Source: Escherichia coli (lineage in GTDB: Bacteria > Pseudomonadota > Gammaproteobacteria > Enterobacterales > Enterobacteriaceae). From it: 64,000 nt of DNA. Under the pieces are notes generated by a model. The model saw only the letters and a list, made by a program, of their open reading frames with translations. It was not told where the DNA came from and did not search any database. The number at the start of each line of letters is the position of its first letter. Positions within the stretch are counted from its first letter, which is position 1. Shown here piece by piece: positions 56,787 to 56,965 of the stretch. A program made the translations under genes and the position numbers. Location of the stretch: the NCBI RefSeq assembly GCF_001677475.2, contig NZ_CP015229.1, one strand, 5' to 3'.

Positions 56787-56965
56787 AGCTCATTCCAAAA
56801 AGTTAAGGACGTGGCTTGTCAGACGACGGATGAAGCAAGAGACGATCGCCGCAGGGGCGATGCGATAGCAGATTAACTCTTGTTCCCTTCGCAGGTATTA
56901 GCCTGATCAGGTTCCGCGGATCCCGAATAAACGGTCTCAGCCAGTTAAGGCACTCCGACAAGAAA
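56787..56965 (-). promoter_or_regulatory. TPP riboswitch (thi-box) in the thiC leader
   Basis: Minus strand reads ..GGCTGAGACCGTTTATTCGGGATCCGCGGAACCTGATCAGGCTAATACCTGCGAAGGGAACAAG.. upstream of the thiC ATG. Confidence 0.85.

Follow-up and report, generated by a model that had tools for sequence, protein, structure and literature searches.

The thiC thiamine pyrophosphate riboswitch ahead of the thiCEFSGH operon in an Escherichia coli genome: identification, switching structures and comparison with K-12

Among the founding riboswitches is the thiC thiamine pyrophosphate (TPP) riboswitch of Escherichia coli, reportedly described by Winkler, Nahvi and Breaker in 2002; its mechanism has been worked out closely. 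Many TPP riboswitches of Firmicutes belong to the same aptamer family but exert their control through an intrinsic terminator/antiterminator platform, whereas E. coli thiC sequesters its ribosome-binding site (RBS) and employs Rho. The thiM and thiB (tbpA) riboswitches of E. coli carry the P4/P5 loop UAAUGCC, where thiC has UAAUACC. They share the aptamer family with thiC, likewise set an anti-P1 helix against sequestration of the Shine-Dalgarno (SD) sequence and have a pause near the start codon (PMC5234074), but they are found at other loci, precede other genes and have shorter platforms; neither is located in the 64-kb stretch of DNA analyzed here (the window). The thiC TPP riboswitch of Neisseria meningitidis is like that of E. 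coli in aptamer family and regulated gene, but its platform is an intrinsic terminator/antiterminator (PMC7237195).

The K-12 thiC element was characterized by Chauvier et al. (2017, PMC5234074), who found its +1 by primer extension. TPP lowers the expression of a K-12 thiC translational fusion by 65% and also represses a transcriptional fusion, and control is lost in the G31C mutant. In vitro, in the absence of ribosomes, Rho together with NusG terminates transcription at U184/C187 in a TPP-dependent manner, and an in vivo pause is located at U188. Nucleotides (nt) 100-140 of the leader behave as a rut site that can be reached more readily when TPP is present, with TPP-dependent exposure of nt 102-104 and 137-138. 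Both P1 and the RBS are shielded from RNase H by TPP. The anti-P1 strand consists of nt 146-154, and the helix that it forms at the position-187 pause locks the ligand-free state (all PMC5234074).

We found the same element on the minus strand of the window. A scan of positions 48000-60000 against all 4227 Rfam families gave a single above-threshold match to the TPP model RF00059, at 56967..56867, with a score of 74.8 bits (gathering score, 54.3). The match covers model positions 1-105 of 105 and is, therefore, of full length (E = 1.3e-13 when the 12 kb are searched and 6.8e-13 when all 64 kb are), and no second TPP element was detected by the Rfam scan anywhere in the 64-kb window. The earlier note, which was made from the letters of the sequence, had placed a TPP riboswitch on the minus strand ahead of thiCEFSGH and had named a scan with the Rfam TPP model as the check; the score on that strand, above the gathering value, bears out its assignment. 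Each of the four thi-box strings that it quoted is present exactly once in the leader, and they follow each other in the expected order (CTGAGA, 56940-56935; CCTGATC, 56911-56905; GCTAATACC, 56902-56894; AGGGA, 56888-56884). Read as RNA, the region 56940-56884 contains the TPP-sensing motifs in sequence: CUGAGA in the pyrimidine arm and ACCUGAUC..GG.UAAU.CC..GCG.AGGGA in the pyrophosphate arm. The 3' end of the aptamer is located 80 nt before the thiC ATG on the same strand, which places the aptamer in the 5' leader of a thiamine biosynthesis gene. The interval 56787-56965 proposed in the earlier note comprises the aptamer, less two unpaired 5' nucleotides, and the whole expression platform, and it ends just before the thiC ATG (56786). 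The positions of all parts are listed in Table 1.

Table 1. Parts of the thiC leader, the genes downstream of it and the flanking hairpins (nt, leader numbering from the published +1)
Feature	Position in window	Strand	Basis
GC hairpin GCCCCGUGUGUGGGGC, then UAAUUUCUU	56969..56984	minus	Terminator scan; directly 5' of the published +1
Published +1 of the K-12 thiC riboswitch, mapped	56968	minus	Leader position n = window 56969-n
TPP aptamer (THI element, helices P1-P5)	56867..56967	minus	RF00059; identical to K-12
P1 5' strand CUUGU, nt 7-11	56958..56962	minus	Rfam consensus structure; constrained folds; CUUGUC in 68/72 homologues
Anti-P1 helix 5' strand, nt 7-15	56954-56962	minus	Overlaps P1 5' strand
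P1 3' strand ACAAG, nt 86-90	56879..56883	minus	Rfam structure line; constrained folds
Published rut region, C-rich and G-poor, nt 100-140	56829..56869	minus	Composition; PMC5234074
Switch segment UCUGACAAGCCACGUCC, nt 146-162	56807..56823	minus	Folds; conserved dual complementarity; PMC5234074
thiC Shine-Dalgarno region GGAAUGAG, nt 173-180	56789..56796	minus	Sequence; paired in P1-enforced fold
thiC AUG, nt 183-185, with published pause/Rho sites U184 and C187	56782..56786	minus	Start codon; PMC5234074
thiC, phosphomethylpyrimidine synthase, 631 aa	54891-56786	minus	NCBIfam NF006763, 1071.7 bits
thiE, thiamine phosphate synthase, 211 aa	54256-54891	minus	NCBIfam NF002904, 417.9 bits
thiF, ThiS adenylyltransferase, 251 aa	53508-54263	minus	TIGR02356, 290.1 bits
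thiS, sulfur carrier protein, 66 aa	53324-53524	minus	TIGR01683 and PF02597
thiG, thiazole synthase, 256 aa	52552-53322	minus	Pfam PF05690 ThiG, 374.9 bits
thiH, 2-iminoacetate synthase, 377 aa	51422-52555	minus	TIGR02351, 524.3 bits
Symmetric terminator hairpin AAAAACCCGCCGAAGCGGGTTTTT, 10-pair stem	51202..51225	.	Terminator scan; between convergent rpoC and thiH

The leader from the published +1 (56968) to the AUG (56786) is 100% identical in alignment to that of K-12 MG1655. The published landmarks C7-G16, G31 (in CUGAGA), U184, C187 and U188 fit the window sequence in one register only. In this register, the aptamer corresponds to leader nt 2-102 and the AUG to nt 183-185, U184 is found at window position 56785 and C187 at 56782, and the G of CUGAGA is G31, the position at which a mutation abolishes binding in K-12. 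Because the two leaders are identical, we take the K-12 mechanism to apply to the leader in the window. It is, in our judgment, very probable that the element is the thiC TPP riboswitch of E. coli, a cis-acting 5' leader of the thiCEFSGH mRNA that would repress the operon under abundant TPP by way of P1, anti-P1 and Rho. No observation speaks against this reading. This riboswitch is already known; the window holds the well-studied E. coli thiC element, which is real but ordinary. It carries little weight as a discovery, and its value is in annotation, where it explains the regulation of six thiamine genes in the window.

Sequence differences from other E. coli genomes are found around the leader. 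When the window was aligned with K-12 MG1655 and O158:H23, there were no differences from GGGGCUAAUUU... through the AUG, and all differences among the three were confined to the 3' end of rsd, the hairpin upstream of the leader and codon 3 of thiC. The window departs from K-12 by three substitutions in the stem or loop of that hairpin and by one substitution in thiC codon 3 (Ala to Val). In its neighbors (rsd upstream and thiCEFSGH downstream), in its gene overlaps and in its predicted ON and OFF folds, K-12 is the same as the window, but it has a yjaZ-sroH segment beyond thiH that is absent from the window. Of 5426 complete E. coli genomes, 5420 match the 401 bases around the leader with an identity of 95-99%, and the locus is annotated in RefSeq E. 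coli genomes, where the entry reads "TPP riboswitch" or lists riboswitch, thiC and rsd side by side. Across the thi region, K-12 and O158:H23 are 97.6-97.9% identical to the window, and E. albertii is 92.5% identical, which places the window in E. coli or a very near relative. One genome labeled as E. coli (strain SCPM-O-B-8794), which serves as a species representative, has an identity of no more than 93.4% to the window in this region, far less than K-12 and O158:H23, and probably represents a separate Escherichia lineage. The leaders of this strain and of E. albertii have four, not five, U's before the SD sequence. In O158:H23 (NZ_CP076709.1), the closest of the listed E. coli genomes, thiH (positions 11046-12178 of the compared locus, L001) is annotated as a frameshifted pseudogene; the thiH of the window is intact (377 aa).

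The GC hairpin at 56984-56969 directly precedes the published +1. The stem of this hairpin is kept across Enterobacteriaceae genera while its sequence changes (GCCCC.., ACCTCT.., CCCCTC.., CCCCCGC..). Where rsd is located upstream, the 40 nt before P1 form a stable fold (median of -11.3 kcal/mol, n = 24), as opposed to a median of -3.7 kcal/mol where rsd is absent (n = 43). Because the hairpin folds stably in the presence of an upstream rsd and not in its absence, we suggest that it probably serves as the terminator of rsd, and its U-rich tail as a 5' extension of P1.

A consensus scan found no sigma-70-like promoter in 56600-57600, and no hexamers of this type are positioned for the published +1. 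Upstream of the hairpin, however, a non-coding block, GTTAACGCGTAATTTACA, and a 17-bp spacing are conserved in about 12 Enterobacteriaceae genera. The block contains a weak candidate promoter, consisting of TTGAGT (57022-57017), a 17-bp spacer and TAATTT (56999-56994), and the candidate -35 element overlaps the rsd stop codon. In Pectobacterium, Dickeya and Brenneria, a near-consensus promoter (TTGACA-17-TACAGT) is followed by the hairpin and then by P1; in Dickeya undicola, where rsd is confirmed upstream, the -35 element again marks the end of the rsd coding region. Given that no sigma-70-like hexamers fit the published +1, that the block and its 17-bp spacing are conserved and that these three genera share the promoter-hairpin-P1 layout, the thiC mRNA could start about 19 nt farther upstream, near A56987. 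The hairpin would then serve both as the 5' stem-loop of this mRNA and as the rsd terminator, and the published +1 would reflect a stop of the reverse transcriptase or processing of the RNA. Many other genera, however, have TTGTAG-16-TATACT ending 7-12 nt before CUUGUC, a placement that predicts a start at P1, as published, and argues against the upstream start. On balance, we regard the upstream start as a tentative proposal that is rather doubtful.

In Serratia grimesii and S. plymuthica, the -10-like TATACT of the conserved thiC promoter is located in the loop of a GC hairpin downstream of rsd (CCCUCC UAUACU GGAGGG), so that the terminator-like hairpin and the promoter overlap in these species. 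We found no independent determination of the transcription start site in the literature: the rsd paper (PMC3089606) is silent on the rsd-thiC spacer, and PMC11143247 refers to the "natural thiC promoter" with no further detail. Where exactly the 5' end is located is of consequence for co-transcriptional folding experiments with thiC RNA as a model; the identification of the riboswitch and its mechanism are unaffected by it.

In addition to matching K-12 in sequence, the leader of the window folds into both of the published states. When +1..+210 is folded without constraints, the minimum-energy structure (-56.1 kcal/mol) includes anti-P1 (nt 7-15 with 146-154) and leaves the region from the SD sequence to the AUG mostly without a partner inside the leader, except that three SD bases, G173-A175, pair with nt 160-162. 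When P1 is enforced (nt 7-11 with 86-90), the energy of the fold is -48.2 kcal/mol, and nt 149-162 pair with nt 173-187, which covers the GGA of the SD sequence and the entire AUG. These two folds reproduce the published ON and OFF states, respectively. Within the switch segment, GACAAG copies the P1 3' strand, and GCUAUGUC in the start region mimics the P1 5' strand CUUGUC. Between the aptamer and the ATG, the terminator scan of the minus strand found no stem-loop with a T-run. The composition over nt 100-165 is of the rut type, with 32-44% C and 16-28% G in 25-nt windows. A platform that has no terminator and is C-rich and G-poor fits control by Rho and translation, and not by an intrinsic terminator.

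Based on these folds and on the K-12 experiments, we propose the following course of events. In the absence of TPP, the switch segment would pair with the P1 5' strand to form anti-P1, P1 would be broken and the SD sequence and AUG would be free; thiC would be translated and the operon transcribed. When TPP is bound, P1 (nt 7-11 with 86-90) would be stabilized and would keep its 5' strand, and nt 149-162 would fold back on GGAAUGAGCUAUGUC (nt 173-187), burying the RBS together with the start codon. At the same time, nt 100-140 would be accessible to Rho, and RNA polymerase would be terminated at the U184/C187 pause, on the start codon itself. The block of translation would act as a second layer for transcripts that escape termination.

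We examined the conservation of this arrangement in the thiC leaders of other bacteria. A degenerate pattern for the P4/P5 arm matched 120 loci in contigs representing one genome per species; 84 of these loci have thiC close behind on the same strand, and 72 of the 84 provided usable leaders, from Enterobacterales, Vibrionales, Alteromonadales, Aeromonas and Marinomonas. CUUGUC is the P1 5' strand in 68 of the 72 leaders, a constancy that is partly imposed by the search pattern, in which two bases, the first ones of the P1 3' strand, were set. The platform copy GACAAG is present in 50 leaders and GCUAUGUC at the start codon in 58 (both out of 72). In 55 of the 72, the P1 5' strand and the platform form a best duplex that is more than 2 standard deviations below shuffled sequences (z below -2). 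The P1-complementary segment of the platform is usually located 36-60 nt ahead of the AUG, and it also pairs with the SD-AUG region, at -10 to -17 kcal/mol. Mutually exclusive structures linked to P1 are thus found in most of the 72 homologues, and the three-way complementarity is conserved among these gamma-proteobacterial thiC leaders.

Plain minimum-energy folds are less informative than these direct duplex tests. The anti-P1 helix is part of the plain fold in only 25 of the 72 homologues, and the assignment of ON and OFF states from such folds is noisy, to the extent that a difference of a single base reverses the outcome for E. coli. For the sequestering helix, we aligned 54 distinct hairpins and specified 14 pairs by hand. 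Paired bases occupy 79% of the cells of this alignment in register and 27-47% when the partners are slid by 1-3 columns. Six outer pairs have changed on both sides (for example, from A-U to U-A in 14 sequences), and the seven inner pairs hardly vary. In the 54 hairpins, the helix has a covariation score no higher than that of one-column slides, because its arms are rich in A/U and its core does not vary, and the support for the helix is, therefore, its conservation and pairing potential and not statistical covariation. RNAalifold returned no consensus structure for the 54 aligned hairpins from the switch segment to the AUG.

Given that the sequestration of the SD sequence and AUG is the clearest conserved feature and that the platform has no terminator hairpin, the switch could also be purely translational. 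TPP would then only hide the RBS, and the drop in mRNA would be passive, through decay or through Rho acting inside thiC, with no checkpoint in the leader; Bastet et al. (2017, PMC5499598) do tie translational control to Rho termination in E. coli riboswitches generally. However, termination at U184/C187 that depends on TPP and on Rho/NusG takes place without ribosomes, and nt 102-104 and 137-138 are exposed in a TPP-dependent manner (PMC5234074). We therefore consider a purely translational switch very improbable and retain a leader checkpoint by Rho combined with sequestration of the RBS.

A Bacillus-type attenuator, in which the binding of TPP would allow the leader to form an intrinsic terminator hairpin, has a precedent in the Neisseria thiC riboswitch (PMC7237195). 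In the window, however, terminator-like sites near the leader are located only upstream of the aptamer (56984-56969 and 57014-56998), and the UUUUU of nt 168-172 is in the loop of the sequestering hairpin and not behind a stem. With no stem-loop and T-run between the aptamer and the ATG, we rejected an intrinsic terminator in the thiC leader, and an attenuator of this type is extremely improbable. Equally negligible is the notion that the match arose by chance or marks a decayed relic without function, or that a minus-strand ORF of 58 codons spanning the leader (56979-56803, start GTG) encodes an attenuating leader peptide, since the match is of full length with an E value of 1e-13, the leader does not vary between the window and K-12 though its flanks differ and is conserved across orders, and the GTG has no SD sequence before it and falls within the upstream hairpin's variable loop, at a position that differs in K-12 and in other genera. 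With its start codon not conserved, the ORF was rejected as a leader peptide. Both short ORFs on the leader, 56803-56979 (minus strand, 58 aa) and 56689-56868 (plus strand, 59 aa), look spurious.

Downstream of the leader, six thiamine genes are tightly packed on one strand, as expected of an operon, and thiCEFSGH is described in the literature as one operon. All six genes start with ATG and are free of internal stops, and their boundaries are those of the RefSeq E. coli annotation. For thiG, there was no NCBIfam match above the cut-off, and its identity was settled by PF05690. The gene overlaps given in the earlier note are exact: 1 nt for thiC/thiE (TGATG), 8 for thiE/thiF, 17 for thiF/thiS and 4 for thiG/thiH; a gap of 1 nt separates thiS and thiG. 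On the sequence, the overlaps are compatible with translational coupling, which is plausible. Each downstream thi gene, however, has its own SD sequence 6-9 nt before its ATG (GGAGG, GGAG, GGAGG, GGGGG and GGAGG), and independent initiation is, therefore, equally possible. Upstream of the leader are rsd (57019-57495, minus strand, NF008723) and then nudC and hemE on the plus strand.

The terminator scan found no strong internal terminator on the minus strand within thiCEFSGH, only weak sites at chance level. The hairpin at 51225-51202 is the sole strong terminator-like site downstream of the leader on this strand. It looks like a bidirectional terminator and likely ends both the thi operon transcript and rpoC. 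The most economical reading of this anatomy and of the literature is a single transcript from the leader to this hairpin. Rho termination at +184/+187 would remove all six genes together, and sequestration of the RBS would be a back-up for thiC. We suggest that control of thiE-thiH by Rho termination and polarity is more likely than control by translational coupling. The earlier claim that the whole operon is under TPP control can thus be made more specific for thiC, where TPP would act directly on the RBS and through Rho termination at the gene start; for thiE-thiH, we infer control from the operon structure.

In the spacer between rpoC and thiH, the window has 27 nt (51233-51259) in place of a K-12 segment of roughly 950 bp with yjaZ and the small RNA (sRNA) gene sroH. 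The short junction is present in 1634 of the 5420 complete E. coli genomes and is, therefore, a common polymorphism.

Several other features were detected in the window. At 25077-25266 on the plus strand, a second riboswitch, a cobalamin aptamer (RF00174, 86 bits), is located just upstream of a 629-aa ORF (25287-27176) that is presumably btuB. Rfam matches on the plus strand include a complete rrn operon with a spacer tRNA (28352-33361), StyR-44 between the spacer tRNA and the 23S gene (30132-30240) and "P26" just upstream of the rpoB ORF (42537-42598). The OxyS sRNA is matched on the minus strand (17350-17459), and four tRNAs are matched at 36995-37433. An ORF for an M20-family peptidase (388 aa) and an ORF for an MFS transporter (438 aa) occupy 20185-22710 on the plus strand, just before a TetR-family ORF (22721-23464) that we take, by its position, to be fabR. 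This pair is presumably not found at this place in K-12 and may represent strain-variable cargo.
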